Shown: piece by piece, positions 5,871 to 41,240 of the stretch
How the letters are laid out: each line of letters opens with the position of its first letter
How positions within the stretch are numbered: position 1 is the first letter of the stretch
DNA from: Okamejei kenojei
Taxonomy: Eukaryota
NCBI GenBank assembly: GCA_035221665.1
Contig: CM069132.1
Location: forward strand, 32,426,001-32,490,000
Direction of reading: 5' to 3'
Length of the DNA stretch: 64,000 nt
Notes under the pieces: model-generated
Databases searched by the model: none
Seen by the model: only the letters and a program-made list of their open reading frames with translations
What the model was told of the DNA's origin: nothing
Made by a program: the position numbers and the translations under genes

Positions 5871-6018
5871 AAACATCAACCTAACAAAGAACATTGTACA
5901 TTTTCATTGCAATAGACAAGTTTTCTCTGAAAAGATCTGTTATCAATGTAGGATGCTTAATTTTAATATCTAGTATCCGCTGCAATATAATATAATGGCT
6001 ATGTTTTGTTTTCTTCAG

Positions 6019-7519: not shown

Positions 7520-9080
7520 TCATAAATTCATGCAGTGTGGAAACATGCCCTTCGGCCCAACTTGCCCACGCTGACCAACATGCCCCATCTACAATAATCC
7601 CACGTGCGTGTGCTTGGCCCATAACCTTCTAAACCTGTGCTGTCCATGTACCGGTCCAATTGTCTCTTGGTGTTATGATAATACCTGCCTCAACTGCCTC
7701 CTCTGGCAGCTCATTCCATATATCCACTATCAGTTGTGTGGAAAAAAAAAAGTTACTCTTCAGCTTTCTATTAATCTTTCTCCCCACACCTTGAACCTAT
7801 GTCCTCTGGTTCTTGATTCCCCTACTCTGGGCAAAAGACTCTGCGTTTACCCGATCTATTCCTCTTGTATTTTTGTATACCTCTGCATGATCACACCTCT
7901 TCCTCCTGTGCTCCAAGGAATGAAGTCCTACCCTGCTCAACCTCTCCCTATAGCTCAGGCCCTCGAGTCCTGGCAACTTCCTTGTAAATCTTCTCTGCAC
8001 CCTTTCCAGCTTTCCAACATCTTTCATATAACATGGTGATTAAAACTGAACACAGTACTCTTAAGTGTGGCCTCGCGAATGCCTTGCGCAACTGTGACAT
8101 GACCACCCAGTTTCTATGCTCAATACTGTCACTGAAGAAGACCAATATACCAAAAGCCTTTTTGACCATCCCATTCTACCTGTGAGGCCACTTTCAAGGA
8201 GCTATGTACTCTCCTTGTATCTCTCTGTTCTACAATGACTGGGCTTTTATTCACTGGAATTTAGAAGGATGAGAAGGGATCTTATAGAAACATTTAAAAC
8301 AAAGTTTATTGGACAAGCTAGATGCAGGAAAATTGTTCACGGTGTTGGGGGAGTCCAGAACCAAGGGTCAAAATTTAAGAATAAGGGGTAGGCCATTTAG
8401 GACTGAGATGAGGAAACACTTCTTCATTAAGTTTGTGAATCTGTGGAATTCTGTGCCACAGAAGGCAGTGGAGGCCAATTTGCTACATGTCTTCAAGAAA
8501 GAGTTAGATTTAGCTCTTGGGGCTAAAGGGATATGGGGGGAAAAAGCAGGAACTGATTTTAGATGATCAGCCATGATCATATTGAATGGTGGTGCTGGCT
8601 TGAAAGGCCGGATGGTCTACTCCTGCACCTATTTTTTAATCTTTCTAACACTACACAGAGCCCTACCAGTCACAGTGTACATTCTGACCTTGCTAGGCTG
8701 CCCAAAATGCAACACCTCATATTTGTCTGTATTAAATTTAATCAAGCATTCCTCAGTCCAGCTGGCCAACCGATCAAGGTACTGCTGCAATGTCTGACGA
8801 CCATCTTCACGATCCACAATATCACCCACTTTAGTGTCTTGTGCAAACTTGCTAATCATGTCCCGTACATTCTCATCCACATCATTGATATAGATTACAA
8901 ACAGCAATGGGCCACACCACTAGTCACTGGCCTCCAGTCCAACAACCTTCAGCAACCTTCCACCATCACCCTCTGCTTCCTTCCATGAAGCTAATATTCT
9001 TTCAATTCAGCTATATCTCCTTGGATCAGATGCGATCTAACCTTCCAGAGCAGTCTACCTTGTGGAACCTTGTCAAATGC
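7520..9080 (-). mobile_element. CR1 RT/3' fragment (minus) interrupted by a plus-strand CR1 3' fragment at ~8235-8645
   Basis: ORFs LFVIYINDVDE...ISKFAQDTK and LERVQRRFTR on minus; GESRTKG...NLWNSVPQKAVEA on plus. Confidence 0.85.
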
Positions 9081-9209
9081 ATGTGGGCCACAATGAAGTG
9101 GAATTTAGTTCCCTAGACGAAAGCTGCGCAGGATTTTAATTGAAGAAAGTGATGGAGGTTTCAGGATGCTGTTGACTTGGGGAAAGTGGAAGATGTGACC
9201 ATTCAGCTT

Positions 9210-9512
9210 GTCCATGGAAATACAGCAGTAGAGTTGTTGCCTTACAGCGTTTGCAGCGCCGGAGGCGCAGGTTCGATCTCGACTGCAGGTGCTGTCTGTA
9301 AGGAGTTTGTACAATCGCCACTTTACCGCGTGGGTTTTCTCCGACATCTCGGTTCCTTCCCAAACTACAAGACGTACAGGTATGTAGGTAAATTGGCTTG
9401 GTATAATTGTCCCTAGTGTGTAGGATAGTGTTAGTGCGGGTATCGCTGGTCGGTGCAGACTTGGTGGGCTGAAGGGTCTGTCTTGGTGCTGTGTCTCAAA
9501 ACTATACTAAAA
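9210..9512 (+). mobile_element. tRNA-derived HE1-like SINE with CR1-type tail
   Basis: A-box-like cagcagtagag, B-box ggttcgatc, conserved body shared by many copies in the window. Confidence 0.8.
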
Positions 9513-9677
9513 TGGCAATTCAATCCTTTGTGTTTTGGGTACTGACTTCTCTCTTCGATCATTTTTGAATGGAATTATTTGGGACTATTTGACTATTCTA
9601 AAGCTTTTAGTGCACATTGAGACAGATTACATTGTATGGGCTTTCTTTACAATAAGGTATGATTTACCTTTACCAGG

Positions 9678-10003
9678 TTTAGTTTAGAGATACAGCACGG
9701 AAACAGCCCCTTCGGCCCACCAAGTTTGCACCGCCCAATGATCGCCGCACTAACACAAGCCTACACACACTAGGGACAATTTACACATATACCAAGTTTC
9801 CAAACGGAAGCCAATTAACCTACAAACCTGTACATCTTTGGAGTGTGGGAGAAAACCGAAGATCTTGGAAAAAACCCAGGCAGTCACGGGGAGAGCGTAC
9901 AAACACTGTACAGACAGCACCCGTATTCGGGATCGAACCCCGGTCTCTGGCGCTGCAAGAACTGTAGTGCATCAACTCTACCGCTGCACCACCGTGCTGC
10001 CCA
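9678..10003 (-). mobile_element. HE1-like SINE (inverted relative to 9210-9512)
   Basis: Reverse complement of the same family; gggatcgaaccc B box. Confidence 0.8.
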
Positions 10004-10363
10004 TAAAAGGTGATAAGAGTTTTATCAGTGAATTTAAGTGTCAGTCAAGGCAGTGCGATTCTTATTGGCATTCCAGTGTGTTTTTTTTTAATTGCATTTC
10101 TTTTTACTGGTTGCATATTTGCATTATTTAAAATATTTTTTCCAAACAATTTGATGAAAAAATAATAATTTACAAATTTACATGTGTTTTGGTTCATTAT
10201 GACTTGTCATAGTCCTTGAATGGGAAGGTACTAATTAATTGAAGAACCCCTACCTTGAACAATCATTGACAGCAGTTTAAATTTCTGCAGTGTCATCCAA
10301 GAATAGCTGTGAACTTCCTTGTTATCACAAATTAGCTGAGTCTTTTTCTTATTGTGTTACTAG

Positions 10364-10519
10364 TTTTTTGAATACTCTTCACACAATGAATTTCGTTATA
10401 ATACTCGTCAGCCTGAGGCCTGTATTGCAGCAGATGCTGGCAGTGACTTCCTGACAATGTACCTTTGCCGAGAGAATAACCAGCCTGTGCCTGAAAACCA
10501 GCAATTCATTTTTAAAGAG
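10364..10519 (+). CDS. GALNT12: GALNT12 exon, lectin beta repeat (FFEYSSHNEFRYNTRQPEACIAADAGSDFLTMYLCRENNQPVPENQQFIFKE)
   Basis: TAG acceptor, GTAATG donor, 156 nt phase 0; continues NQ/FFEY. Confidence 0.93.
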
Positions 10520-10969
10520 GTAATGTTTGTAAAGTACTATTAGTGCTTATTTTTGTAAGTATAAATTTGGAAGATGCAGTTATATAATTCATGGCGCATC
10601 TTCAAAATTATAATCGCCCATTTATTTTCATTTATAAAACCTGTTACGTAAATTACAGGTGTGTGTATAATACATGTTAAATAAACTGAGAGTAACTGAA
10701 ATCTTAAAATGTGACTCTTAAAAGTCAAAGACTGATAAAAGATTGTTGTATTCCAGGAGAAAGACCTGCAGCACATTATTCTGCACTATATATATATTCT
10801 GTATAGAAATAGAAAACCATAACCCAAAGAAATATATCATCATAAACTTTGGATTACATAGTAGAGTTATGACTTTTGAGTATTTCCAGTGTAAGACTGT
10901 ATTTTGTCTGAACTATTTTAATTAGCTTGTGATCTTGATTATTTTTGTTTTTAAATGTTCTTTTGTCAG

Positions 10970-11110
10970 GATGGTTCGATCTACCATGTCCTTTCGCAGA
11001 AGTGTATAGAGGCTGTAGCCAATGGATTCAATAATGGTCGGCCAGGACCATTACTACGGCCATGTTCTGATATCGATCATCAGAAATGGTACTTTCAAGA
11101 AAGAAAATGA
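10970..11110 (+). CDS. GALNT12: GALNT12 terminal coding exon (DGSIYHVLSQKCIEAVANGFNNGRPGPLLRPCSDIDHQKWYFQERK*)
   Basis: ttttgtcAG acceptor, 141 nt to TGA; QxW motif and HQKWxFxER C-terminus typical of GALNT12. Confidence 0.93.
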   Translation, partial: DGSIYHVLSQKCIEAVANGFNNGRPGPLLRPCSDIDHQKWYFQERK

Positions 11111-16095: not shown

Positions 16096-17270
16096 TGTGG
16101 TTGGTTTGAAATGAAGCACAGCAAAAGGGTGGTGGTGGTTGGTTTGAAATAAAGCACAGCAAATGGTTGGTGGTGGTTGGTTTGAAATGAAGCACAGCAA
16201 ATGGTTGGTGGTGGTTGGTTTGAAATGAAGCACAATTCCTTTGTCTAAATCGTTAATATATATTGTAAATAACTGGGGTCCTTTGTTCTTTGGTTGCTTT
16301 GTTCCTTTAGGTACAGGTTTGGAAGATCTTGTTTATGAAGCCCTAATGAGTGGACAGAATGCATCCTGAACTTGATCCAGACTGCAGCTAAGTTGTTTCA
16401 GAAATGGAACAAATTAATATTCAATTAGATGGATGTGGTGCTAACTAATCTGATGTTTAGTGCTGGATTGTATTAACAGCTTTAGCATTGAAACAATACT
16501 CATTCAAGCAACTGGAGCATATTTCTTCACATGCCTGATTTGTGTCTTGTAGATAATGGAAGAGTTTGCGGAAATTGCTTGTCAATGACAAGGCATTTAT
16601 TATTGATAGCATTCTCTTCTATTTACATTTGGTCATACACAAAGCAGTTTTCACCCAGATGCACCAACATCTGTACAACATAAAGGCTGAGATGAATATT
16701 AATTTCAGCTGTTTTAAGAGCTTACTTTCAACAATGAAAAGGCTCAGCCGTCTAAGACAAAACAGCCTTGTTCTCTTGGCAACCTATTTTAAGCCATTCA
16801 TTCCCTCCTGGGTAAAAAAATCTCAGGCCCTGGAAATCTGTAGTAAAAGCAGTTATCTTTCCATAGATGCTGACTGACCTGTTTTTTTTTTTTATTCAGC
16901 ACTTTCTGCAAGTGCTCCCTACTGCTTGACCACAATGTGGCTGCGGTGTGTACCAAATACAAGGTCATAGAACTCCATCAGACCCACTGAATGCCTTGTT
17001 AACCTCCATATCTCTATCACCAAATCAAACAAGGGCAGCAGGTACATGAGTCATCACATTTCCCTTATAGACACACACACCTGCTGACGTGGAACTATGT
17101 TGCCACTCATTCATTGCCACGGAGTCAAAATCCAGCAATTTGCAACCTGCAGAAATGATGGGAGGAACTTGACTGCAAGTACGGAAGTGGTTGAAAAAGG
17201 TGGCATTGCATAGTTAATTCTAATTAGGGACAAGCAATAAATGTAGACTTAAACGTGAATTATTAAAAAT
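16096..17270 (+). repeat. Copy 1 of ~1.15-kb direct duplication (starts in a ~35-bp tandem repeat)
   Basis: Colinear with 20413-21553, about 30 differences counted by eye. Confidence 0.95.
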
Positions 17271-20200
17271 ATATATTTTTTCCCTATTATCAAAAAGAAA
17301 TCCAAGAAATGTCTTTGGTTTACTGTTTATATTAAATTTGAATCTGGAACTCCTAATATTATTAATTTTGGATCTGGGTCCAGTTTAATTTTAAGAACTT
17401 CAGAGATAACTCAAGATTTCTGTCCAATAATAATTGAGTTTTATACTTGTTACAAAACTATGCGTTAAATTAGCTTCCAAGTTCTGACATTTATCACAAA
17501 TAGGAGAAATGTTAGAATAAATTCTATTTAATTTCGTTTTTGAATAATGTAATCTGTGTAATACCTTAAATTGTATCAATATATGTCTAGCATTTAATGA
17601 GCAACGATGTTGGCTTTCTTCCCAAGTTTCCTTCGTTATAGATAAACCTATTTCATTTTCCCATGTTTGTCGATATATTTCCGGTTGGGATTTCCCTATC
17701 CAAGATAGTATTGTATATATACGCTATTAATTTTTCCGTATTTGGGTGTTTATTAAACAATTCATCTAATAATCCTGGTTTTCTATTTTTAGTCTTGCGT
17801 ATTTGACTTAATATAGTTTCTAATTTGTAAATACCTAAAAATGTTATATGATTGCAATCCATAGATATCCTGTAACTCTTGAAATGAAATATATTTTCCT
17901 TTCTTATAAAGGTGTTCTATCCTTTTAATTCCTAAATCATTTCAGTGTCTAAACCCCTTGTCCAATACAGAGGGCTTAAACAAAGGATTATTCATAATTG
18001 GCAAACAAAGTGACAAATTATCCATATGTAGGGTTTTAACTATTTGTTTCCAAATACGTCTATTGCTATGAATTATAGGGTTATCACCATACTTTTTTTT
18101 TGTACTTCCCTTGGTGCAAAAAGAATCGAACCTACATCAAAAGGCAAACAGTCTTCCTTTTCCATCTTTAGCCAGCTTGGTTCATAATCTAAATTTACCA
18201 ACCAAAAATTCATATTCTTAATCTGAACTGCCCAGAAATAATATAAGAAATTTGGTAGTGCTAGTCCACCATTTATTTTAGATTTGCATAGATGTTTTTT
18301 ACTTATTCGATGATTTTTATAGTCCCAAATAAAACTATTAACCAAAGTATCTATTTAAAAAATAAAAACATTTTAGGGAGATATAAAGGGATGGCTTGAA
18401 ATAAATATAACATTTGTGGCAAAAAAATCATTTTTATAGCATTTATTCTACCGATCATTGAAATAGGTAGTGTTTTCCAATATAAAATATTTTTTTTAGT
18501 TTATTTAACAATTGAGGGTAATTGTATTTAAATAGACAGTTATAGAATTTAGATACATTAATTCCTAGATATTTAAATTTGTCCGTGACTATTTTAAGTG
18601 GGAATTGTTCTAGTATATTTATTTTATTCCAGTTATAGGCATAATTTCACTTTTATTCCAGTTAATTCTATACCCAGAAAATGTGCCAAACTTAGTTATA
18701 ACATTGGGAATACTAATATTGGGAATATAGATTCGGAATACTAATCTCCGGTTTTGTGATATAAATTAAGATGTCATCTGCGTATAGAGATATTTTATTA
18801 TTTGTAGTTTTGGTATTATATCCATATATTTCTGGTTCTGATCTAATCATTTTGGCTAATGGTTCTATTACCAGAGCAAATAGTAATGGTGATAACGGGC
18901 ATCCTTGTCTACAACCCCTAAAGAGATTACATTTTGCTGATAACATTTGATTTGTTAATATTCTTGCAGTTGGATTTGAGTATATGATTTTTACCCATTT
19001 GGAAAATCTATCCCCCGTTGAAATTTCTGCATTATTTTAAATAAATATGGCCAATCAACCTGGTCAAATGCTTTTTCAGCATCTAAGGATAATGACAGCT
19101 AGTTCAATATCATTCATTCTTTTTGAGTATATGATATTGAATAGACGTCTCAGATTATAAGATGAATAGTGTTTTGGTGTAAAACCTGTTTGGTCATGAT
19201 GTATTAAGTTATTAATCACTAAACTTAACCTCCAAGATAAAATTTTAGTTAGTATTTTTTGATCAGTATTTAAAAGAGCTATTGCTCTGTATGACCCAGG
19301 GTCTTCCAAATCTTTATCAGCTTTAGGGATAAGTGTAATTGTAGATTCATTTAATGATTCTGGTAACTTTCCTTGTTCATAAGCATGTTTATATATTATA
19401 TGTACACGTGGAGAGATCAGATCATAAAACCTCTTATAAAATTCAACACTTAAGCCATCAGGGCCTGCGGCTTTTCCGTTATTTAATGATCCAATTGATT
19501 CTTCAATATCTTTTACTGATATATCAGCATTTAACAAGTCTCTACCTTCCTGATCCAAACTATTAATATGACATTCTTGTAGGAAAGTTTCCATTCCATC
19601 TGGTTGTCCTGCTAGTTTAGATGGGTAAAGATGTTGATAATATTGTAAAAATGTATCATTGATATCTTTTAGTAAAGTCAATATTTCTCCTTGTTCAGAT
19701 CTAATTTTATGTATCATTTTCTCCTCATCTAATTTTCTAAGCTGGCGTGCCAGTAATTTTTGTGGTTTATCCCCAAATTCAAAGTGTACTTGTTTAGTCT
19801 GTTGAAAACGTTTAATAATCTGATTTGAATATATTTTATTTAGCTTATATTTTAATGATGCAATTTTATTACTTAGCCCCTTTGAAGGGGATATTGCATT
19901 TTCAATATCTAATTGTTTTATTTCATTTTCCAACTTTTGTTGAGTCTATCGATTTTCCTTATTAAAGTATGCGTGTGCTGATATTATCGCACCACGCATA
20001 AATGCTTTAAATGTATCCCAAAGCAGTGATGGTGAAATTCCAGGTTTGTCACTAGTTTAAAAAAATAATTTAATCTGTTTTACCAAGTAATCATAACAAG
20101 CCTTATCTTTTAATATTTGGGGGTTGAGTCTCCAGTTAGAGGTTTTAATAGTTATGTCTTTTAATTTTATCTTAAATGTTAATGGAGCATGATCTGAGAT

Positions 20201-20412
20201 AATAATATTATGATATTTTGAGTCATACGTAAATGGGATTAGTTTTGAATCTATTAAAAAATAGTCTATCCTTGAATAGGTTCCGAATACAGGGGAAAAA
20301 AATGAATATTCTCGATCAGATGGGTTATCTGTTCTCCAAATATCCTTAACATTTGCTGTGTTAATAAAATAATTTATAAGTGTACTTGACTTAGAAGTGG
20401 TTTTCCTTTTCA
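17271..20412 (-). mobile_element. L1/Tx1-type LINE ORF2 fragment (end of APE endonuclease, RT, C-terminal Cys region), truncated at both ends
   Basis: YSRIDYF...SDHAP, GKAAGPDG, RQGCPLSPLLF, LYADD, CDKC motifs on minus strand. Confidence 0.92.
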
Positions 20413-21553
20413 TGTGGTTGGTTTGAAAAAGCACAGCAAATGGTTGGTGGTGGTTGGTTTGAAATGAAGCACATTGAAAGGGTAGTGGTGGTTAGTTTGA
20501 AATGAAGCACAATTCCTTTGTCTAAATCGTTAATATGTATTGTAAATAACTGGGGTCCTTTGTTCTTTGGTTGCTTTGTTCCTTTAGGTAACAGGTTTGG
20601 AAGATCTTGTTTATGAAGCCCTAATGAGTGGACAGAATGCATCCTGAACTTGATCCAGACTGCAGCTAAGTTGTTTCAGAAATGGAACAAATTAATATTC
20701 AAGTAGATGGATGTGGTGCCAACTAATCTGATGTTTAGTGCTGGATTGTATTAAACAGCTTTAGCATTGAAACAATGCTCATTCAAGCAACTGGAGCATA
20801 TTTCTTCACATGCCTGATTTGTGTCTTGTAGATAATGGGAAGAGTTTGTGGAAATTGCTTGTCAATGGCAAGGCATTTATTATTGATAGCATTCTCTTCT
20901 ATTTACATTTGGTCATACATGAAGCAGTTTTCACCCACATGCACCAACATCTGTACAACACAAAGGCTGAGATGAATATTAATTTCAGCTGTTTTAAGAG
21001 CTTACTTTCAACAATGAAAAGGCTCAGCCGTCTAAGACAAAACAGCCTCGTTCTCTTGGCAACCTATTTTAAGCCATTCATTCCCTCCTGGGTAAAAAAA
21101 ATCGCAGGCCCTGGAAATCTGTAGTAAAAGCAGTTATCTTTCCATAGATGCTGACTGGCCTGTTTTTTTTAATTTTTATTCAGCATTTTCTGCAAGTGCT
21201 CCCTACTGCTTGACCACAATGTGGCTGCGGTGTGTACCAAATACAAGGTCATAGAACTCCATCAGACCACTGAATGCCTTGTTAACCTCCATATCTCTAT
21301 CACCAAATCAAACAAGGGCAGCTGGTACATGAGTCATCACATTCCCCTTATAGACACACACACCTACTGACGTGGAACTATGTTGCCACTCATTCATTGC
21401 CACGGAGTCAAAATCCAGCAATTTGCAACCTGCTGAAATGATGGGAGGAACTTGACTGCAAGTACGGAAGTGGTTGAAAAAGATGGCATTGCATAGTTAA
21501 TTCTAATTAAGGATGAGCAATAAATGTTGACCTAAACATGAATTATTAAAAAT
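20413..21553 (+). repeat. Copy 2 of ~1.15-kb direct duplication
   Basis: Colinear with 16096-17270. Confidence 0.95.
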
Positions 21554-21569
21554 AAACACCCATATTCTG

Positions 21570-22445
21570 CTGGATGCAAGGAAATGCTGTTGCTGGTTTA
21601 CAAAAAAAGACACAAAGTGCTGGAGTAACCCTGTGGGAGATTTCAGTCTATATATGATTCCAGACCATACCAATGTACTCTTCACCCCCTCCCCAGGTAC
21701 CTTCCCTTGCAATGGCAGGAGATGCGTCACCTGTCCCTATACCTCCTCCTTCGACTCCAGGGAGTCCTTTCAGGTTAGGCAGTGGTTTCCTTGCACCTCT
21801 TCCAACCTCATCTACTGTATCCGTTGTTCAAGGTGTGGACTCATACACATCGGCGAGACTGTACGATCGTTTTGATGAACACCTTTGCTCAGTTTGCCTG
21901 GACCTACCAGATCTCCAGGCTGGTTGCCAAACACTTTAATTATCCTTCCCATTTCCACACTGACCTTTCTGTCCTTGGCCTCCCCCATTGTCAGAGTGAG
22001 GCCAAATGCAAATTGGAGGAGCAGCATGTCACATTTCGCTTGGGCAGCATACAACCCAGTGCTATGACTTTTGATTTCTCTAACTTCAAGTAACCCTTGC
22101 ATCCCTCTTCTCTCTTCATCCCTCCCCCATCCAAGTTGTACTAGCTTCAAAGTTGTATTGTTGAGTCTCATTGTCTGTAACTCATTCTCACCTAACACAC
22201 AGCTAACAATGGCCTTTTTCCTTTATCATCGTTACCTTTTTTGCATATCTTTCATTCATTTGTTCTATATCTACATCACCATCTATATCTCTCGTTTCCC
22301 TTTCCCCTGACTTTCAGTCTGAAGAAGGGGCTTGAACCGAAACGTCACCTATTCCTTTTCCCCAGAGATGCTGTCTGACCTGCTGAGTTACTCCAGCTTT
22401 TTGTGACTATGTTTGGTGCAAACCAGCATCTGTTGTTTCTTTCAA
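21570..22445 (+). mobile_element. Penelope-like element 3' part: GIY-YIG endonuclease remnant plus pLTR, with short inverted copy of the terminus at its 5' end
   Basis: PGTFPCNGRRCVTC...SSNLIYCIRCSRCGLIHIGET; 21585-21630 is the reverse complement of ~22385-22430. Confidence 0.88.
22319..22346 (+). ncRNA. Minimal type I hammerhead-like motif in Penelope pLTR (stem II partly decayed)
   Basis: CTGAAGA-A-ggggcttgaacc-GAAAC-GTC. Confidence 0.55.
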
Positions 22446-23029
22446 CATTACTCTTCACTGCTCCTTAGCTCAAGGGTAATGAGGATAGGGCAATGGCCAC
22501 ATCATGTGAATTAATAACTTTTCAAATATACAAAAGGATACGAAGTGCTGGAGGTTTGAAGAAAGGTCTCGATCTGAAACGTCATGTAGCTATGTTTTCC
22601 AGAGATGCTGTGTGACCTGCTAAATTACTCGAGCAATTTGTGTATTTTTCTTTATCTCTTTTTGGCTGTTTTGGATTTATTTAGTGGGCTAGTTTGAAAA
22701 GTTAGTTATTTGTTTGAAACAAAGCATGACAATTGAATCTAATCTGCCCCTCATGATCTAATCAAGAGTAGGCAGATTGAATGCACATCCACTGCAGGAA
22801 CTCAAGTCTAATTTATTTTAGTACTAACGGTAGCACTTTTGTCAACCGTTGAGCTCAATGCGGACTAAAGCAACCTGCAACTGAGCTCCTTTGTTTTAAG
22901 ATGCTTCAAATACATCCAATGAATGGTGAAGCCATGCGGGTTGAATGTGCTTTGGACACAGTTCCTGGTCTCCACAGAGTAGTTAACTGATAACAGCTGG
23001 CATTGCAGCTCTGCACTTGATCTGCATTG

Positions 23030-23410: not shown

Positions 23411-23542
23411 AAACTTGGTGTAGAGAGAGTTATGCCTTGGTTGAACATAAGAGAAGGAAAAGCTTCGTTCCTGTTGATTTCAGTGACTATACAGGGACCC
23501 CTGCTGGAGATGTATATGTTCATGATAGATAAAGATTGGAGT

Positions 23543-23570
23543 CTGAAGAAGGGTTTCAGCCCGAAACGTT
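23543..23570 (+). ncRNA. Minimal hammerhead motif in ~95-bp solo Penelope-derived mini-element (23541-23635)
   Basis: CTGAAGA-A-GGGT-ttca-GCCC-GAAAC-GTT, core intact. Confidence 0.65.
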
Positions 23571-25321
23571 GCCTATCTCCTTCGCTCCTGAGATGCTGCT
23601 GCACCCGCTGAGTTTCTCCAGCCTTTTGTATACCCAAGATTGGCATGGTTGTTTATTGTAATGAAACAGTATAACGATGTTAACTTGGCAAAAAGATTTG
23701 ACTAGGATTCTGAAAGTAAACTACATTTTAGCCTCAAGTAAATGTGACAGCATCCAATTGCAAAAACCCCTCACTAGTTATTGTTATTATTGAAAGATTG
23801 CCTTCTGAGTGTCTTAAGTGTGACTATTGCAATTCCATTTAAAATACTTGAATTTTCAGAGGGATTATTTTCTGTGACTGGTACAATGCAGCATTTTTGC
23901 ACATAGCTATAACAAAAATAACTTTGTCTAGTAAATCATCATGTTTAATCTGCAGACCAGGTGACTTGCATATATGTTAAGATATTAAAAGCATGGCCGT
24001 GACCTGAATATTGAGGAGTCATTCATTTTCTGTTGATTGATATATTGCTGTTGCGGATGTTCTAGAATTGCTATCAGCTAGTTTCTTTGCAAAGGCTTTT
24101 AAATGAATACACCTTCATTTAAGCGAAGGTCACATTGGTAAGGCATTTCACTAATAAGACAGTCACTTAATATACTTCTGTGAGTAGCTTTGGCATTTCA
24201 GCAGCTTAGCGGAAACTGGAAGCTGCCTTGTCTCAGTGCTCAGTTCTGATGTCCTGTTATTTTGGAGCTCAAAGCTCCAGCTAATACCCTGTCTCATTCT
24301 CACACAGATGAACATATTTTCAGAAGAAGGAATCGCTGAGTGCTATTTGAAGGTATCATCAACTACATGATTAACACCTGATTAGAATCTACTGGCTATT
24401 TCTAAAGGTCTGCAAGCTCTCTTTAAATTAGCTAAAATCTGCAGCAAGTGAGACTGCAGGTGCTGAAGGGAATTTATTTTAAGGCCTTTGTGTAAGCCAG
24501 CATCTCCCAAGCGTACACGTTTTCCTTGGAGCACCTCGTGAAAATGTAACCTTTCATAATGACCTTTCTGTGCTTCCCAGGTCAGAAAGATCGTTCTGAG
24601 AATTAAAATGGTTAGCAACCAGGAGAGCAATGGTTAGCAACTAAGCCTTAGGACCAAGCAAAAGTGTTCGCAAAACGGTTGACGAGTTTACACTTGGTCT
24701 CACTGATGTACAGGAGACCACATTGGCTCGTTACTAGATAAGAGGATATAGGTTTAAGGTGAGAGGGAAAAAAATTAATAGAAGCACAAGGGACAACTTC
24801 TGCGTAGTGGTATTCAAAATGAAGAGAGGCCCACAAGAGAGGCCCACAGGAGCCGTTGGAAGAGGAGGAGGGGGAGGAGCGACACCCGACCGGTAAGCTA
24901 TAAAATCTAGCGCGGGGCTTGTTTTTTTCAGAGGCCCACAGGAGCCGTTGGAAGAGGAGGAGGGGGAGGAGCGACACCCGACCGGTAAGCTATAAAATCA
25001 AGCGCGGGGCTTGTTTTTACCCAAATCCATAACATTCCATTTGGAGAAGTGGTTTTTTTTGAGGAAACCGCTGATTGGTGGAAGAGGACCCGAGGAAGCA
25101 GCTGATTGGGTGCAACCCCGGGTTTACAATTTTACATTTCTGCCTTCTGGGAGTTAGGGATTCTGGGAGTTAGGGATTCTGGGAGTTAGGGATTCTGGGA
25201 GTTAGGGACTCTGGGAGTTAGGGATTCTGGGAGTTAAGGATTCAGTATTTAGTAGTAAAGTTTAAAGGATAAGTTTTTGTGTTTTTTTAATATTTAATAC
25301 AGAGTAATTTGGGAGTAAGGT

Positions 25322-26268
25322 ATGGCAGTAGAGATTGGCCCCGTGGTTTGTTCAGCCTGCAACATGTGGGAGATCAGGGAGATGGTCGGTGTCCCTGGTG
25401 ACTACGTTTGCAGGAAGTGTGTCCAGCTGCAGCTCCTGGCAGACCGCATTGAACGATTGGAACTGCGGCTGGATTCATACTGGAGCATCCACGATGCGGA
25501 GAAAGTCGTGGATAGCACGTACAGTGAGTTGGTCACACCGCAGGCAAAAGGTAAGAGGACAAAAAGGGAACGGGTGGCCAATAGCCAGCAAAGCAGTAGG
25601 CAGGTAGTGCAGGAGTCCCCTGCGGTCATCTCCCTCCTAAACAGGTATACCATTTTGGATACTGTTGAGGGAGATGGCTCATCAGGGGAATGCAGCAGCA
25701 GCCAGGTTCATGGCACCATGGGTGGCTCTGCAGCACATGAGGGGGGAAAAAAGAGGGGAAGGGCAATAGTAATAGGGGATTCAATTGTCAGGGGAATAGA
25801 TAGGCGTTTCTGCGGCCGCAAACGAGACTCCAGGATGGTATGTTGCCTCCCTGGTGCAAAGGTCAGGGATGTCACTGAACGGCTGCAGAACATTCTGGAG
25901 GGGGAGGGTGAACAGCCAGTTGTCGTGGTGCATGTTGGCACCAACGATATAGGTAAAAAAAGGATGAGGTCCTACAAGTGAATTTAGGGAGCTAGGAGAT
26001 AAACTTAAAAGTAGGACCTCAAAGGTAGTAATCTCCGGATTACTACCAGTACCACGGGCCAGTCAGAGTAGAAATAGGAGGATAATGCAAATGAATACGT
26101 GGCTTGAAAAGTGGTGCAAGGGGGAGGGATTCAAATTTTTAGGGCACTGGGACCAGTTCTGGGGGAGGTGGGACCGGTACAAACAGGACGGTTTTGCACC
26201 TGGAATGGAATGGAACCAATGTTCTTGGGGGAGTGTTTGCTAGTGCTGTCGGGGAGGATTTAAACTAA
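25322..26268 (+). pseudogene. CR1 ORF1: CxxC-CxxC zinc finger, leucine zipper, SGNH/GDSL esterase (frameshifted)
   Basis: CSAC...CRKC, VIGDSIVRG, HVGTND; frameshifts near 25960 and 26195; ends GEDLN*. Confidence 0.9.
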
Positions 26269-29251
26269 TGTGGCAGGGGGATGGGTACAAGAGCAGAGAG
26301 GCAGGTGGGTGTAAAATGAGGGTAGAAGCATTAGGTAGCAAGGTGAAAAGTAAAAGTGGCAGGCAGACAAAACCAGGGCAAAAATCAAAAAGGGCCACTT
26401 TTCAGCAAAATTGTATAAGGGGTAAGTGCGTTGTAAAGCCAAGCTTGAAGGCTTTGTGTCTCAATGCAAGGAGTATTCGTAATAAGGTGGACGAGTTGAA
26501 CGTGCAGATAGATATTAATGATTATGATATAGTTGGGATCACGGAGACATGGCTCCAGGGTGACGTAGGCTGGGAGCTGAACATCCAGGGATATTCAATA
26601 TTCAGGAGGGATAGAGAGAAAGGAAAAGGAGGTGGGGTAGCGTTGCTGGTTAGAGAGGAGATTAACGCAATGGAAAGGAAGGACATTAGCTTGGAGGATG
26701 TGGAATCGGTATGGGTAGAGCTACAAAACACTAAGGGGCAGAAAACGCTGGTGGGTGTTGTGTACAGGCCACCTAACAGTAGCAGAGAAGTTGGGGATGG
26801 TATCAAACAGGAAATTAGAAATGCGTGCGACAAAGGCAAAACAGTTATAATGGGTGACTTCAATCTACATATAGATTAGGTTAATCAAATTGGCAGGGGT
26901 GCTGAGGAAGAGGATTTTTTGGAATGTATGCGGGATAGTTATCTAAATCAACATGTAGAGGAACCAACGAGAGAGCAGGCTATTTTAGACTGGGTTTTGA
27001 GTAATGAGGAAGGGGTAGTTAGCCGTCTTGTTGTACGTGCCCCCTTGGGCAAGAGTGACCATAATATGGTTGAGTTCTTCATTAGGATGGAGAGTGACAT
27101 TGTTAATTCAGAAACAATGGTTCTGAACTTAAAGAAAGGTAACTTTGAGGGTATGAGACGTGAATTGGCCAAGATTGACTGGCAATTAATTCTAAAAGGG
27201 TTGACGGTGGATATACAATGGAAGACATTTAAAGACTGCATGGATGAACTACAAAAATTGTTCATCCCAGTTTGGCAAAAGAATAAATCGGGGAAGGTAG
27301 TGCATCCGTGGATAACAAGGGAAATCAGGGATAGTATCAAAGCAAAGGATGATGCGTACAAAGTAGCCAGAAAAAGCAGCATACCAGAGGACTGGGAGAA
27401 ATTCAGAGACCAGCAGAGGAGGACAAAGGGCTTAATTAGGAAAGGAAAAATAGATTATGAAAGAAAACTGGCAGGGAACATAAAAACTGACTGCAAAAGT
27501 TTTTATAGATATGTGAAGAGAAAGAGGTTAGTTAAAACAAATGTAGGTCCCTTGCAGTCAGAAACAGGTGAGTTGATCATGGGGAACAAGGATATGGCGG
27601 ACCAATTGAATAACTATGTAGTTATGTGGTTCCGTCTTCACTAAGGAAGACATAAATAATCTGCCGGAAATAGCAGGGGACTGTAGGTCAAAGGAGGAAT
27701 TGAGAGAAATCCAGGTCAGTCGGGAAGTGGTGTTGGGTAAATTGAATAGATTAAAGGCCGATAAATCCCCAGGGCCAGATAGGCTACATCCCAGAGTACT
27801 TAAGGAAGTAGCTCAGGAAATAGTGGATGCATTAGTGATAATCTTTCAAAACTCTTTAGATTCTGGAGTAGTTCCTGAGGATTGGCGGGTAGCAAATGTA
27901 ACCCCTCTTTTTAAGAAGGGAGGGAGAGAGAAAACGGGGAATTACAGACCAGTTAGTCTAACATCGGTAGTGGGGAAACTGCTAGAGTCAGTTATTAAAG
28001 ATGGGATAGCAGCACATTTGGAAAGTGGTGAAATCATTGGACAAAGTCAGCATGGATTTACGAAGGGTAAATCATGTCTGACGAATCTTGTGGAATCTTT
28101 CGAGGATGTAACTAGTAGCGTGGATAAGGAGAACCAGTGGATGTGGTATATCTGGACTTCCAGAAGGCTTTCGACAAGGTCCCACATAAGAGATTAGTAT
28201 ACAAACTTAAAGCATACGGTATTAGGGGTTCAGTATTGATGTGGATAGAGAACTGGCTGGCAAACAGGAAGCAAAGAGTAGGAGTAAACGGGTCCTTTTC
28301 ACAATGGCAGGCTGTGACTAGTGGGGTACCGCAGGGCTCAGTGCTGGGACCCCAGCTATTTACAATATATATTAATGATCTGGATGAGGGAATTGAAGGC
28401 AATATCTCCAAGTTTGCGGATGACACTAAGCTGGGGGGCAGTGTTCGCTGTGAGGAGGATGCTAGGAGACAGCAAGGTGACTTGGATAGGCTGGGTGAGT
28501 GGGCAAATGTTTGGCAGATGCAGTATAATGTGGATAAATGTGAGGTTATCCACTTTGGTGGCAAAAACAGGAAAGCAGACTATTATTTAAATGGTGGCCG
28601 ATTAGGAAAAGGGGAGATGCAGCGAGACCTGGGTGTCATGGTACACCAGTCATTGAAAGTAGGCATGCAGGTGCAGCAGGCAGTGAAAAAAGCGAATGGT
28701 ATGTTAGCTTTCATAGCAAAAGGATTTGAGTACAGGAGCAGGGAGGTTCTACTTCAGTTGTACAGGGTCTTGGTGAGACCACACCTGGAGTATTGCGTAC
28801 AGTTTTGGTCTCCAAATCTGAGGAAGGACATTATTGCCATAGAGGGAGTGCAGAGAAGGTTCACCAGACTGATTCCTGGGATGTCAGGACTGTCTTATGA
28901 AGAAAGACTGGATAGACTCGGTTTATACTCTCTGGAATTTAGGAGATTGAGAGGGGATCTTATAGAAACTTACAAAATTCTTAAGGGTTGGACAGGCTAG
29001 ATGCAGGAAGATTGTTCCCGATGTTGGGGAAGTCCAGGACGAGGGGTCACAGCTTAAGGATAAGGGGGAAATCCTTTAAGACCGAGATGAGAAAGACTTT
29101 TTTCACACAGAGAGTGGTGAGTCTCTGGAACTCTCTGCCACAGAGGGTAGTTGAGGCCAGTTCATTGGCTATATTTAAGAGTGAGTTGGATGTGGCCCTT
29201 GTGGCTAAGGGGATCAGAGGGTATGGAGAGAAGGCAGGTACGGGATACTGA
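26268..29251 (+). pseudogene. CR1 ORF2: APE endonuclease + reverse transcriptase with a few stops/frameshifts
   Basis: LNARSI, ITETW, GDFN, SDHN, KSPGPD, GVPQGSVLGP, FADDTK motifs across ORFs 26268-29251. Confidence 0.93.
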
Positions 29252-30423
29252 GTTGGATGATCAGCCATGATCATATTGAATGGCGGTGCAGGCTCGAAGG
29301 GCTGAATGGCCTACTCCTGCACCTAATTTCTATGTTTCTATGTTTCTATGAGCTGCCAGAGGGGGTAGTTGCAGCGGGCACCATAACAATATTTAAAAGT
29401 CACTTGGACATGCACATGAACAGGAAGGTTTAGAATGTTATGGACCAAAAGTAGGCAAATGGAACTAGTTTAGATGGGGCGATCAGGTGCTGTCTGGCCG
29501 GCTGAGTTACTCCAGCATTTTGTGTCTATCTCAGATGTAAACCAGCATCTGCAATTTCTTCCAACATTTTACTCCCATAGTGTCTAGTGCTGTCTAGTGC
29601 AAAAATATGATCGTATTCCATACAGAACTCAGGAATCTCACCGCAGAGAGTTGAATATTACAAATCCTTTACTGTACATGTTTGAAGTATTGGGTGATCA
29701 AGAGCTAATATGTGCCTGCAGGTGCAGGAATCTTGAGTGAAAAACAAAACCTAACAGTGAGTTACAAATGAATGTCATAGGCGAAGGAGAGTTTTGAATT
29801 AATAGAATTTTGAGACCTTTAAAAACAGCATTAAAAGCATATCAGTTGGTGGGACAGATGAAAATATGAAAATATTGAAGTATTATTTGTTCCCCAAGTA
29901 TTGTTAGACATATATAGAATGATTTTTCAATATATCCTGATGACAAAGAAGCCGAAAGTGTCTATGCCAATTCACAGAGCAATCTCTTTCTCCCACTTAT
30001 TTTATGTCCTGTAACCTTCCATTCCCTTCAACTCCTGATGCCATCCTGCATCAATTCTACCCCTCACTGAAATGCTTGGGCCCGTTTACTGTGCCAATTT
30101 AGTCTACAAACGTGCAGGGCTTTGCAAAGTGGGAGGAAACCCACATGGTCTATGTGACGTTTGTGCATTCAACCCGTGACCATGTGGGCATCAAAGGTTA
30201 GGTTTGAACTTGGGTTGCAGGAGCTGTGAGGCAGCGGCTCGTCTAGCTGCTGACTATAAATGATGCCACTCTGCCACTATCATATGCCACTGTGGTCTTT
30301 CCAAAAGTCACCCTTCTGTTCACAGGTCAGAAACTGACAGATGATCCAGGAGAATCTGAAACTAAAGCTGCAGCTTCTAAATTTCCTACTGCAGCTAAAG
30401 GTCCTGACACTTTAAAAGCATGA

Positions 30424-31345: not shown

Positions 31346-33823
31346 AGATTCTGATGATTGGGATTCTGCTATGCACATTGTATGTGTAGTTTCCCTCTGG
31401 TATTTTCTTCATGATTCACATACAAAGCCTATAATTAAAATAACTTTAAGCGACAGCTGAGCTAATATGCTGTGAAAGATCTTGAATATGATCATCAAAG
31501 TTTTATTAATCTCAATTTATATCAGTCAAAAGTCATGCACTCAAACAAATGAATCATTTCTTAGTGTAAAATATTGTATTTGCTCAAGGCTAAAATATTA
31601 AATCATTTTTTAATACTAATAGTGAAAAGTTGTTTCGAATAATGTAATTTTCACAAAATGTACATGCTTTTAACACTGACAACGTAATATAAATGGTTGG
31701 CAGATGAATAATCCAATAACAAAGAGACACAATTATCTTAAAAAGATGGGATTGTGGAGGTAGATTCATTACACTGGAAACGTCCTTGCAAAATAACACT
31801 TAAGGGTGACACAGTGGTGCAGCTGGTAGAACTGCTGCCTCACACTGCCAGAGACCTGGGTCTGATCTTAACCACAGCTACTGCCTGTGTGAGATTTGCA
31901 TGTTTTCTCTATGACTGCATGGGATTCCTCTGGGTGCTCTGGTTTCCTTCCACATCCCAAAGATGTGCGGGCGAGTTAATGCTTTAGCTCCAGAATCTTT
32001 CACCTGAGTAGGCTTTGAAATTCACTCATTGTTGCTCTGTAAGTAACGACAACAGTTGATCAGATGGGGAAAGAGGTCCCACAGGGGCAATTAAATGATA
32101 ACCCAGATAATTCCCTTTCATGTTGCTACTTGCAGGGAGTTTGCCAGGAGTCCTCTTCCATTATAATGTTTACAGACTTAAAAAGAAGGATTAAGAGGAT
32201 TGAGCAGAGTATATAGAGATAATGTCCTCTTTTATTACATTATATGAAAGTAAAGCGGATTGTGCGGTTACTTTGTACAACATCTCTTGTTGCAGGGATG
32301 ACCCTGAACTTCTAGGTGCTGTTTCTTTAAATCTCCCTCCCACTCACACTATGATCTCTCTGCATTTGACCTCCTGTATTCTTCAAATTCAGCTCAACAT
32401 AAGGCCAAGGAACAGCTTAGATAGGTGAATGCACAGTTTTTCCCAAGGTTGGGGAACTAGAAGGTATAAGTGTTGGGTGAAAGAGGAAATATTTAATAGG
32501 GATCTGAGGGGTATGTTTTCCCACAGAGAAGGTGCTACAAACAGCAAAAAAGAAGTGTTTGAAGCAGGTACAATAAAATAATTTAAAATACATTTGGACA
32601 GGCACATGGATAGGAAAGGTTTAGTGGGATATGGGCCAAATGCAGGTAAATAGGACTAGAGTATTTGGGCATATTGGTCTGCATGGACAAACTGGGTCAT
32701 TTCTGGTGGTGCATAACTCTGTAACAGCACCTATCCTTATGACTGGCACTGTGCAGATTGGAATGTAATTTTGAATGCAATAATATTAGTTGATCATTTG
32801 TTTAAGTCTTGCAATTTCAGCTTTCTTTATTTTATCTCTCTTCTAGTATTTCTTTCTTTCATCTTTTCCATTTACACTGTGTCCACTCATACCTTGATCA
32901 CCTTATTTCACCTTATTTCACCTGATTTTCTGATCATCCCAACAGACATCCTACCTTTTTCTTCCCTTTTTCTTCACCTTGTCCTTTCTGTCTTTAGTGC
33001 AGCTTAAAACCTGTTTCATTTATCTACTTTCCCAGTAGAGAATAAGGTGACTCAATTTGTATTTCAGATTTATGGCTGCTTTTGGGTTGCAGTTGATTTT
33101 GCCCATATGACTGTGGGGTATTTCCAAAGAGAAGTGAAAGTATGGCATTCACTGTGCTCCATTAGTGCACTTCCCTGGTCAGCAACTTATGGTGGCAGAT
33201 ACATTCACTTTTCCAGATTGTCATAGATAACTCCATAGGTGTGGACTTCATGCTCAAATATGTGATTCATCCTATGATATTTCCTATGAGCTTTCCAATA
33301 AAAGCACTGTAGCAACATTCATATTGATATCGGCTTGCATGATTAGATTTAGTAATATTATTTATATTCCACAAGCAGCAGTTAAGTAAAATACTCTCAG
33401 CAAAAATGGATCTGTTTCTTCCCAAGAAAGATTTGGTTGATTTGGCTTCTATTTTCTGAAGTTTAGAATAGTAAAAGGGGATTTCATGGCAAAAAAAACC
33501 TACAAAAAACTAACAAGACTGGGCAGACCAAATAATGAGAGTGACTTGTGTGCAAGAAGGAACAGTAGAAAGGGTCTTGACCCAAAACGTCATCCATTCC
33601 TTCTCTCCAGAGATGCTGCCTGTCTCGTTGAGTTACTCCAGCTTTTTGTGTCTATCTTCAAGGAGAATGTCTTGATGGTTGGGAAAGAAAGAAGGGTTAT
33701 TGTCTAAAAACTATGTAGGACTGAGATGAGGAGAAATGTCTTCATCCTGAAAGTGGTGAATCTAACTGTCATGTAAAGCATTTTTATGTCAAATAATTAA
33801 TTATATTCAAGAATTAATTATAT

Positions 33824-36120
33824 TGAGAATGAGGAGGTCATAGAGAGGAGCTACAGGGAGGTAGTCACTCCCAAACCACAGGAGGCAGACAAGTGGGTCA
33901 CAGTTAGGAAGGGCAAGGGGCAGAGGCAGGGGCTAGAGAGTACCCCTGTGACCGTACACCTGGAAAATAGGTACTCGGGTTTGTGTACGATTGGAGGGGA
34001 CAGCCTAGCTGGGGGCAGCAACAGCGGCCGGGCCTCCGGCACAGAGACCAGCCCTGATGCTCAGAAGGGTAACAAAAAAAGGAGGGCAATTGTAATAGGG
34101 GACTCTATAGTTAGGGGGTCGGATAGACGATTCTGTGGACGCAGTCGGGAGACCCGGATGGTAGTTTGCCTCCCTGGTGCCAGGGTCTCGCATGTGTCAG
34201 AACGTGTCCAAAAGATTCTGATAAGGGAGGGAAAGGAGCCTGATGTTGTGGTACACATAGGTACCAATGACATAGGCAGAAAAAGTGACGAGGTCCTGAA
34301 GGGAGAATTTAGGGAGTTGGGGGGAAAGTTAAGGAGAAGGACCAAAAGGGTAACAATTTCAGGATTACTGCCTGTGCCACGTGACAGTGATAGTAGGAAT
34401 GAAATGAGGTGGAGGATAAATGCGTGGCTGAGGGACTGGTGCAGTGGGCAGGGATTCAAGTTTCTTGATCACTGGGACCTCTTTTGGGGAAGGCATGATC
34501 TGTACACAAAGGACGGGTTGCACTTGAGCCCGAGGGGGACCAATATCCTGGCAGGGAGATTTGCAAAGGCTACTGGGGAGACTTTATACTAGAAAGGCTG
34601 GGGGGAGGGACTCGGGTAGAGGGGGCTAGGGGTCAGGGTGTGGGACAAGAGGCAGAGAAGGGAAGCACTCAGATCCAAAATGTAGGCGTGAAAGATGAAA
34701 AAGATAATAGACAGAGAATAAGGGATGGTGGGTTTCTAAAATGTGTATATTTTAATGCTAGGACCATTGTAAGTAAGGTGGATGAACTTAGAGCCTGGAT
34801 TGACACCTGGAAATATGATGTTGTGGCAATCAGTGAAACATGGTTGCAGGAGGGCTGTGATTGGAAACTAAATATTCCAGGATTTCGTTGCTTCAGGTGT
34901 GATAGAATTGGAGGGACCAGAGGGGGAGGTGTTGCATTGCTTGTCAGAGAAGATATTACAGCAGTGCTTTGGCAGGATAGATTAGAGGGCTCGTCTAGGG
35001 AGGCTATTTGGGTGGAACTGAGAAGTGGGAACGGTGTAGCAACACTTTTAGGGGTATATTGTAGACCGCCAAATGGGGAGCGTGAATTGGAAGAGCAAAT
35101 ATGTAAGGAGATAGCAGATATTAGTAGTAAGCACAAGGTAGTGATTGTGGGAGATTTCAATTTTCCAAAAATAGACTGGGAAGCACATTCTGTAAATGGG
35201 CTGGATGGTTTGGAGTTTGTAAAATGTGTGCAGGATAGTTTTTTGCAGCAGAACATCGAGGTATCGACCAGAGAAGGGGCAGTGCTGGACCTCCTGTTAG
35301 GAAATGAGGCCGGTCAGGTGACGGAGGTATGCGTTGGAGAGCACTTCGGGACCAGTGATCACAATACCATTAGTTTCAATATAATTATGGAGAGAGTCAG
35401 AACTGGACCTAGGGTGGAGATTTTTGATTGGAGAAAGGCTAACTTTGAGGGAATGCGTAAGGATTTTAAAGGAGTGAATTGGGACACTTTGTTTCATGGG
35501 AAGGATGTAGAAGAGAAATGGAGGACATTTAAAGGGGAAATTGTAAGAGTACAGAATCTTTATGTCCATGTTAGGTTGAAAGGAAATAGTAAAAATTGGA
35601 AAGAGCCATGGTTTTCAAGGGAAATTGGACACTTGTTTCGAAAAAAGAGAGATATCTACAATAATTATAGGAGGCATGGAGTAAATGAGGTGCTAGAGGA
35701 GTATAAAGAATGTAAAAAGAATCTTAAGAAAGAAATTAGGAAGGCTAAAAGAAGATATGAGGTTGCTTTGGCAAGAAAGGTGAAAGTAACCCCCAAGGGT
35801 TTCTACAGCTATATTAATATGAGAATGAGATGATAATTTGACATGAGAATTAAGGGACAGAGGTTTCGGGGTAACGTGAGGGGGAACTTCTTTACTCAGA
35901 GGGTGGTGGCTGTGTGGAATCGGCTTCCAGCAGAAGTGGTGGAGGCAGGATCGATTTTAACATTTAAGAGTAAAGTGGATAGGTATATGGACGTGAAGGG
36001 AATGGAGGGGTATGGTCTGAGTGCAGGTAGATGGGACTAGGGGAAAACAAATGGTCGGCACGGACTGGAAGGGCCGAGAGGGCCTGTTTCCGTGCTGTAA
36101 TTGTTATATGGTTATATGGT
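33824..36120 (+). mobile_element. Second CR1 family copy: ORF1 esterase, intact endonuclease, RT deleted, (TTATATGG)n tail
   Basis: ORFs 33948-34592 (GDSIVRG, HIGTND, DGLH) and 34640-35833; jumps to 3' end at ~35840. Confidence 0.9.
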
Positions 36121-37273: not shown

Positions 37274-38298
37274 ATGAAGCCCAAGGAACACACCAGACAG
37301 GTCAGGGATAAAGTTGTGGAAAAGTTTAAAGCAGGGTTAGGTTATAAAAAAATATCCCAAGCTTTGAACATCTCACGGAGCACTGTTCAATCCATCACCA
37401 GAAAATGGAAAGAGTATGGCACAACTGCAAACCTACCAAGACATGGCCGTCCACCTAAACTGACAGGCCGGGCAAGGAGAGCATAGATCAGAGAAGCAGC
37501 CAAGAGGCCCATGGTAACTCTGGAGGAGCTGCAGAGATCCACAGCAAAGGTGGGAGAATCTGTCCACAGGTCAACTATTAGTTGTGTACTCCACAAATCG
37601 GGCCTTTATGGAAGAGTGGCAAGAAGAAAGCCATTGTTGAAACAAAGCCATAAGAAGTCCCGTTTGCAGTTTGCCACAAGTCATGTGGGGGACACAGCAA
37701 ACATGTGGAGGAAGGTGCTCTGGTCTGATGAGACCAAAATTGAAGTTTTTGGCCTAAATGCAAAACGGCATGTGTGGCGGAAAACTAACACTGCACATCA
37801 CCCTGAACACACCATCCCCACTGTGAAACATGGTGGTGGCAGCATCATGCTGTGGGGATGCTTTTCTTCAGCAGAGACAGGGAAGCTGGTCAGAGTTGAT
37901 GGGAAGATGGATGGAGCCAAATATAGGGCAATCTTGGAAGAAAACCTGTTAGAGTCTGCAAAAGACTTGAGACTGGGGCGGAGGTTCACCTTTCAGCAGG
38001 ACAACGACCCTAAACATACAGCCAGAGCTATAATGGTTTAGATCAAAGCATATTCTTGTGTTAGAATGGCCCAGTCAAAGTCCAGACCTAAATCCAATTG
38101 AGAATCTCTGGCAAGACTTGAAAATTGTTGTTCACAGACACTCTCCATCAGATTGGATGGAGATAGCTCGAGCTATTTTGCAAAGACGAATGGGCAAAAA
38201 TTTCAGTCTCTAGATGTGCAAAGCTGGTAGAGACGTACCCCAAAAGACTTGCAGCGGTAATTGCAGCGAAAGGTGGTTCTACAAAGTCAGGGGGGCTG
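37274..38298 (+). pseudogene. Tc1 DD34E transposase, disrupted
   Basis: MKPKEHTRQVRDKVVEK..GRPPKL, WSDETK, FQQDNDPKH, SPDLNPIENLW; stop at 37484-37486 and frameshift near 38035. Confidence 0.92.
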
Positions 38299-41042: not shown

Positions 41043-41240
41043 GAGACACAAAATGCTGGAGTAACTCAGCGGGACAGGCAAGATCCCTGGAAAGAAGGAA
41101 TGGGTGACGTTTCGGGTCAAGACCCTTCTTCAGTCTGAAGAAGGGTCTCAACCTGAATTTGACCCTTCTTCAGTCTGAAGAAGGGTCTCAACCTGAATTT
41201 AAACCTTTGTGCAAAGTTACTCCAGCATTCTGTGTCTATC
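41043..41240. mobile_element. Fold-back Penelope-derived mini-element with head-to-head hammerhead motifs and 40-bp tandem duplication
   Basis: Outer inverted repeats gacacaaaatgctggagtaact/agttactccagcattctgtgtct; perfect palindrome centred on 41134; 41121-41160 = 41161-41200. Confidence 0.85.

Follow-up and report, generated by a model that had tools for sequence, protein, structure and literature searches.

Thirteen loci with a complete or partial minimal type I hammerhead of the type carried by Penelope-like elements (PLEs) were found in 63 kb of the window (the whole 64-kb stretch of DNA analyzed here). We consider it rather probable that these loci are the 3′ ends of a Neptune-like PLE family in batoid fish and that the short copies among them are PLE by-products. 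The Neptune-like placement is putative and draws on a linker motif that is also common to Nematis. A preliminary description of this DNA had reported a dense, dispersed family of ribozyme-bearing units of Penelope origin; the density was borne out, and an intact or decayed version of the motif was found at every position it listed, offset by a few bases at most. The copies and associated pieces, in order along the window, are:

1-400, plus strand: copy with tail, whose pyrimidine-rich upstream part extends past the edge of the window; the hammerhead at 288-320 is decayed
2677-3149, minus strand: 5′-truncated PLE in a galnt12 intron; GIY-YIG remnant at 3149-2877 (E 1e-23), UTR at 2876-2773, then hammerhead and 3′ part
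3104-3923, plus strand: more decayed PLE coding remnants in opposite orientation, directly next to the 2677-3149 copy at its 5′ end; 3110-3505 with E 3e-23
6143-6237, plus strand: old copy with U at position 7 (E 6e-4), just behind a galnt12 splice donor
21572-21645, minus strand: inverted, 5′-truncated 3′ part with tail (E 0.002), adjoining the 5′ end of the 21657-22440 insertion
21657-22093, plus strand: frameshifted PLE coding remnant, with a CX4CX2C linker motif and then a GIY-YIG domain through the stop (E 7e-34)
22094-22440, plus strand: 3′ UTR/pLTR (to 22315), hammerhead (22316-22348), 3′ part and tail
22553-22646, plus strand: older short copy with mutated core, on the strand of 22316 and 237 nt behind it
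23532-23539, plus strand: 8-bp target-site duplication, of which this is the left copy and 23636-23643 the right; exact at both homology-defined boundaries
23540-23635, plus strand: 96-nt short insertion; core at 23543-23570, then the ~64-nt 3′ part; upstream PLE sequence absent
29483-29568, plus strand: 3′ part with tail, hammerhead absent (E 6e-8)
33563-33658, plus strand: short copy with G12 changed to A and a 5′ core that is damaged or absent
41044-41245, both strands: head-to-head palindromic insertion centered on 41134; left arm complete, core intact
42240-42369, both strands: head-to-head insertion, asymmetric at its junction near 42283; 5′ part of the hammerhead missing
44054-44149, minus strand: hammerhead and 3′ part of a 5′-truncated PLE; second fully intact motif, core at 44146-44119
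44150-44383, minus strand: pyrimidine-rich 3′ UTR/pLTR part (pyrimidine fraction 0.75), related to 22094-22315 (84% over 135 nt)
44384-44593, minus strand: C-terminal remnant of a PLE GIY-YIG endonuclease, 59% identical over 68 aa to stingray protein P0004 (E 2e-18)
47626-47715, plus strand: old copy with U at position 7 (E 9e-6)
56337-56349, plus strand: start of a short copy, interrupted by an assembly gap
60799-60925, plus strand: older copy with tail and mutated core, found as a profile match

Nine of the 13 loci are short copies, and the total includes the gap-interrupted 13-nt stub at 56337; two further pieces (29485, plus strand; 21639, minus strand) consist of the 3′ part only. A degenerate 28-nt pattern allowing up to three mismatches matched the window six times and none of 100 shuffles, and a structure descriptor without stem I matched at three places (23543 on the plus strand, 41133 and 44146 on the minus strand), again against 0 of 100 shuffles. 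Searching the window with a profile gave 26 matches at E ≤ 10, 15 of them below 1e-3, where the seven window copies used to build the profile match by construction; the reversed window gave three, the best with an E of 1.4. Profile matches at 16857, 21138 and 60145 (E 0.03-0.23) were too weak and were left out of the copy count. The Rfam scan of the window returned no hammerhead family match and six unrelated sub-threshold matches; the motif is a variant outside the Rfam models. A motif scan of prokaryotic genomes gave 0 matches. Right behind the hammerhead stub, positions 56350-56974 contain three N-runs with near-identical 43-bp stretches between them, probably a collapsed or masked tandem repeat.

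The Penelope origin claimed in the preliminary description is carried by three copies that lie directly behind PLE endonuclease remnants. In these copies (2772, 22316 and 44149) the hammerhead begins 104-234 nt behind the stop codon of a frame remnant, and the remnants match P0004 with E-values of 1e-23, 7e-34 and 2e-18, respectively; the best protein matches of the coding remnant come from two skates and a stingray and, together with the ray match of galnt12 (below), make a skate or ray the probable host. P0004 itself has a weak GIY-YIG match. Among its relatives, seven of the ten scanned match both the RT and the GIY-YIG Pfam families, and 139 of 151 carry a CX2-5CxxC linker, the motif given for Neptune and Nematis (PMC8557442); the window frame at 21657-21857 carries CX4CX2C, which is of this type. 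Direct Pfam searches matched 0 of six remnant frames from the window, so that the identification came via the relatives, and the RT domain was seen only in these, the three window loci showing the endonuclease end. No full-length element, RT-core remnant or partial tandem (pLTRs around an ORF) was present within the 64-kb window, and the 5′ pLTR and start site are therefore not seen there. The unit frames were also compared with 72 long proteins at their N-termini, a set with no known cartilaginous-fish member; this yielded no ORF start and a single weak match (E 0.03). Behind the remnants at 3104-3923 no hammerhead unit was detected.

Read from the longer copies, the 3′ end of the element runs from the endonuclease stop through a pyrimidine-rich UTR and the minimal hammerhead to a ~64-nt 3′ part and an optional tail of ~30 nt, and the 95-nt block of the short copies is this same 3′ end. 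The earlier statement that the units lack coding sequence applies to the short copies, but not to those at 2770, 22319 and 44146, which are joined to PLE coding remnants. The stretch 44054-44383 (minus strand) looks mosaic, with a UTR resembling that of 22316, a ribozyme resembling 41136 and 2772 and a 3′ part resembling 23540 and 42275, a pattern that suggests recombination or template switching between subfamilies. A reading of the pair at 22316 and 22553 as a natural dimer was discarded, since both motifs carry damage and no PLE part matches the spacer. Short weak PLE endonuclease matches (E 0.003-0.008) without a hammerhead behind them also occur at 24660-24728 (minus strand) and 32326-32415 (plus strand).

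Several further features of the copies are ones described for PLEs, where truncation, inverted 5′ copies, junction palindromes, tails and 8-10-bp target duplications have been reported (PMC8557442, PMC3846280, PMC8969392). The ~30-nt tail, which in the 22316 copy spans about 22411-22440, was present in five pieces, absent in seven and ambiguous in one, in line with the optional 30-40-bp tail of PLEs (PMC8557442, PMC3846280, PMC11167929). Three inverted arrangements were found, namely the two head-to-head insertions at 41044-41245 and 42240-42369 and the piece at 21572-21645 relative to the 22316 insertion; inversions are frequent in PLEs (PMC8557442, PMC3846280). The right arm of the 41044-41245 palindrome is rearranged by a 40-bp duplication and a deletion. 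The exact 8-bp duplication around 23540-23635 fixes the start of that insert at the A of 23540; duplications of at least 8 bp were seen in only one of 14 intervals tested, at a null rate of 0.9% per test with the same slack.

Positions 697-11107 (plus strand) hold the last five coding exons of galnt12 (697-876, 4054-4188, 6019-6132, 10364-10519 and 10955-11107; best match a ray protein), and the copies at 2772 and 6143 are intronic, the latter beginning about 9 nt behind the splice donor, with the copy at 288 upstream of the first exon seen and the 23540 copy ~12 kb behind the last. One galnt12 intron also contains a 30-bp tandem array of 14.5 copies (4967-5399, plus strand) whose open frames match a decapeptide-repeat family. 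At 16097-21554, direct repeats of 1.14 kb, 96% identical and each starting in a 38-bp tandem array, enclose an L1-like coding region (about 17400-20490, minus strand) that matches RT and zf-RVT; such repeats would be unusual for an L1-type element and may be a tandem duplication or terminal repeats. LINE remnants at 25061-29480 and 33801-35830 (plus strand), which we take to be CR1/L2-like, have a GDSL/SGNH esterase frame followed by endonuclease frames and, in the former, RT frames. A Tc1/mariner-type transposase fragment (HTH_Tnp_Tc3_2, E 1.5e-22) lies at 37487-38038 (plus strand), and a frame with a single weak C2H2 zinc-finger match at 51944-52396 (plus strand).

In the aligned copies the unit reads as a hammerhead of type I; it has the standard core plus one extra A, and its cleavage site is GUC or GUU. 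The conserved boxes CUGANGA, GAAA and UH are present in type I order, stem II has 4 bp and is closed by G10.1-C11.1, the ACGU has no loop III, and the extra base after A9 and the palindromic 15.2-16.2 are present as well; in the 23540 unit cleavage is predicted after 23570. These features support the minimal type I hammerhead with palindromic ACGU and extra A proposed earlier and match the architecture in PMC4209133. Helix I is only 2 bp long, as had been noted with caution, and since published PLE hammerheads with a 2-bp helix I exist (PMC4209133) the short stem is not disqualifying. Of the three copies put forward as intact, 23543 and 44146 are so, and these loci (23540 and 44149) are the only two that combine a complete core, stem II, ACGU and stem I; the copy at 41133 (minus strand) has an intact core but an A-A mismatch in the first pair of stem I. 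Four of 15 aligned rows show no core change, the row at 33560 being out of register.

The variation in stem II had been described as compatible. It consists of a one-sided change, U-A versus U-G, in three of 11 copies; across helices I and II, the former of only 2 bp, 85% of 88 cells pair, and 171 of 500 shuffles reach the covariation score, which is not significant. The proposed comparison of core and flanking sequence came out in favor of the core: outside CpG sites the core differs from the majority in 10 of 124 cells, compared with 113 of 619 downstream (p = 0.005), for 12 related, non-independent copies that were partly found through the core. Because the copies are related, we read this signal as a probable trace of past selection on active elements, not on the copies in the window. 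Individual copies have decayed at CpG sites, with C11.1/G12 changed in seven of 12 copies and ACGU in six of 12; the 2677-3149 copy has G12 changed to A, and stem II of the hammerhead at 22316-22348 is down to 2 bp.

Secondary-structure modeling, which omits tertiary contacts, disfavors an active monomer. The predicted pair probability of stem I was 0.0 in all ten monomer folds and that of stem II at most 0.11 in nine of the ten; pairing of the purine core with the pyrimidine spacer that follows the cut site was frequent, a predicted hairpin spans unit positions 3-51, and the modeled active dimer lies ~18 kcal/mol above the minimum. Folding strength relative to background was not unusual (z 0.42 and −1.08). 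The low activity of published minimal motifs (PMC4209133) and the protein-assisted ribozyme of the Anolis element (PMC11167929) agree with these predictions.

The 5′ ends of the short copies cluster at about unit positions 1-9, most within ~10 nt of the 5′ edge of the ribozyme, and two pieces begin at about positions 50 and 65. Neither end of any window copy coincides with the cleavage site, which is unit position 32. The pyrimidine fraction in the 60 nt upstream was 0.32-0.63 for eight short pieces (0.43 for 23540) compared with 0.73-0.78 for four long copies, with 60799 and 47624 ambiguous, and the short copies truly lack the upstream UTR. In a test set of five young short copies, four long and two shorter ones, five of 11 starts fall within a 12-nt span (P ≤ 4e-4 in each of five exponential truncation models), a value that is indicative given that this span was chosen post hoc. 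An initiator-like match lies on the position-1 A in three of the four long copies and is lacking at the start in copy 288; this consensus is weak, with 4-5 matches per UTR, and TATAT occurs at −32 and −29 in two related copies. A TATA plus initiator-like pair is known from a rotifer pLTR (PMC3846280). The clustered ends may mark the start of the element RNA. The same site also reads as a splice acceptor, and Penelope of Drosophila virilis has its start site ~120 nt further upstream and an intron whose end is at helix I (PMC2377424, PMC4209133).

On the model of the Anolis PLE, the RT-endonuclease would nick target DNA and begin copying at one of two internal RNA sites, which would account for the two 3′ ends, at about 95 and 125 nt counted from the start of the unit. 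Copying that halted at variable points would leave the copies of 470-780 nt. It is quite possible, and close to an even call, that the ~96-nt copies are run-off cDNA from a transcript starting at unit position 1, the A three bases before C3, with the first internal site used. Two run-off cDNAs might then be joined via the self-complementary start: the arms of the palindrome centered on 41134 overlap by exactly five self-complementary bases (AG-N-CT) at the unit start. Self-priming, as proposed in PMC3846280, would be an alternative origin for this palindrome. The ribozyme would be a passenger in the short copies, needing a partner copy and probably PLE protein to fold and not setting the insert ends, and the genomic copies would decay neutrally. 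Taken as a whole, the scheme in which short units are PLE run-off cDNAs, bounded by the transcription start and internal RT starts and integrated singly or head-to-head, is tentative and by our estimate somewhat unlikely to hold in full.

A different origin of the ~96-nt units or palindromic dimers, which we regard as rather improbable, would be a separate non-autonomous family, in which a short PLE-end master has its own transcription and, because the reverse-transcription start sites are kept, is mobilized in trans by PLE protein. The clustered 5′ ends, the clean 96-bp insert with its 8-bp duplication and the preponderance of short loci would all suit such a master, pLTRs suffice for mobilization in trans (PMC3846280), and non-autonomous PLE derivatives are known from Chlamydomonas (PMC8557442). 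The U-G stem II variant, found in short copies only, fits it too, but the bias is not significant (three of seven short versus 0 of four long copies, p = 0.24). The 94% identity over 96 nt between 23540-23635 and the end of the long copy at 44054-44149 instead indicates subfamilies common to short and long copies, and since the short copies are of several sequence types and ages, several masters cut at the same base would be needed. Short copies do not include the TATA-like motif, which sits upstream of the unit, and no Pol III head was found in the window copies. There were 0 tRNAs in the window and no Rfam matches of tRNA, 5S or 7SL type, and at two mismatches a B box occurred in one of five copies and an A box in two of five, never in order.

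The run-off origin has also to be weighed against ends set by RNA processing at a 3′ splice site before helix I, or by stalling of the enzyme, both of which we think unlikely. A pyrimidine tract followed by CAG stands at the unit start in three of four long copies, with the first AG in more than 50 nt; in D. virilis the 5′ end of helix I is where the intron ends, and a U-rich stretch with AG just upstream is seen in several PLE hammerheads from the literature (PMC4209133). However, the 23540 insert retains the AG, its outward neighbor being the target duplication and not an exon, and the odd-length palindrome center at 41134 retains it as well; stalling at the predicted hairpin would be expected at its 3′ base, not at its 5′ base. 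It is very improbable that the units belong to a metazoan non-LTR retrozyme family, in which cleavage releases monomers that circularize and reinsert, even though the hammerhead is type I and of PLE origin and retrozymes linked to pLTRs are reported in one chondrichthyan genome (bioRxiv 10.64898/2026.07.22.740005). No copy is bounded by the cleavage site, and 0 tandem arrays of the unit occur among 22 tandem-repeat rows for the window, the sole overlapping row being the 40-bp duplication, which lacks the 3′ half of the core. The hammerhead is moreover minimal, the form that belongs to PLEs, whereas canonical ones belong to retrozymes (PMC7229834). The retrozyme/SINE-like label of the preliminary description is accordingly not supported: tandem arrays and a Pol III head are lacking in the window, and none of the copies has its start at the cleavage site.

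That PLE ends carry hammerheads, and that truncated copies disperse them, is already published; new here are a cartilaginous-fish example at an apparently very high density and the 5′-end cluster at the ribozyme edge. Extrapolated from this one window, 13 loci in 63 kb correspond to 1.1-3.5e5 per Gb and the three descriptor matches to 1e4-1.4e5 per Gb. No description of this PLE hammerhead family was found in the literature on skates, rays and sharks, though Repbase or Dfam may hold one, and the consulted text of the skate genome paper PMC12361510 has no mention of Penelope. PLE replication, the formation of head-to-head palindromes and the role of the hammerhead are open questions (PMC8557442, PMC3846280, PMC11167929). 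If the run-off scheme is true, skate genomes would preserve, throughout their length, a fossil record of where the PLE replication intermediate begins and ends, in what may be the densest family of ribozyme motifs reported from any vertebrate (a density extrapolated from one window), and some units may have become self-propagating mini-elements. So many copies would allow genome-scale tests of end positions and core conservation.

Among known systems, the non-LTR retrozymes share with the window units a short, non-coding, PLE-related sequence with a type I hammerhead (PMC7229834; bioRxiv 10.64898/2026.07.22.740005). In these two sources retrozymes are head-to-tail tandems of 150-450 bp with mostly canonical hammerheads and circular RNAs, and the latter defines them by tandems, whereas the window units carry a minimal hammerhead and are dispersed, either singly or paired head-to-head. 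The metazoan PLE hammerheads of PMC4209133 have the same core, extra base 9/10.1, G10.1-C11.1 pair, palindromic 15.2-16.2, missing loop III and U-rich upstream sequence. Helices I (2 bp) and II (4 bp) are here both at the short end of the published range, with a 2-bp helix I in Culex, D. virilis and Oikopleura and a 4-bp helix II also published. Most motifs in that study are single and probably derive from truncated PLEs, with some opposite-strand pairs; about 4,000 were counted in the coelacanth and 9,000 in the Xenopus genome, and the density here may be far higher. Cartilaginous fish were not found in the searched files of its supplement.

Neptune PLEs (PMC8557442) have the same C-terminal endonuclease, CX2-5CxxC linker, 5′ truncation, inverted 5′ copy, optional tail and hammerhead in the terminal repeat. 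They differ in that the window holds neither a partial tandem nor a full ORF, the likeness being one of motif, and in the sharp 5′-end cluster at the hammerhead, of which no published description was found in the sources consulted. Poseidon PAc of Anolis carolinensis (PMC11167929) belongs to a different clade, and its ORF starts in stem II, whereas an ORF start was not found here. The PAc ribozyme cuts only with protein and is dispensable for insertion in vitro. As in the window copies, the PAc hammerhead lies shortly upstream of two 3′ ends, and the insert ends are unrelated to the cleavage site.
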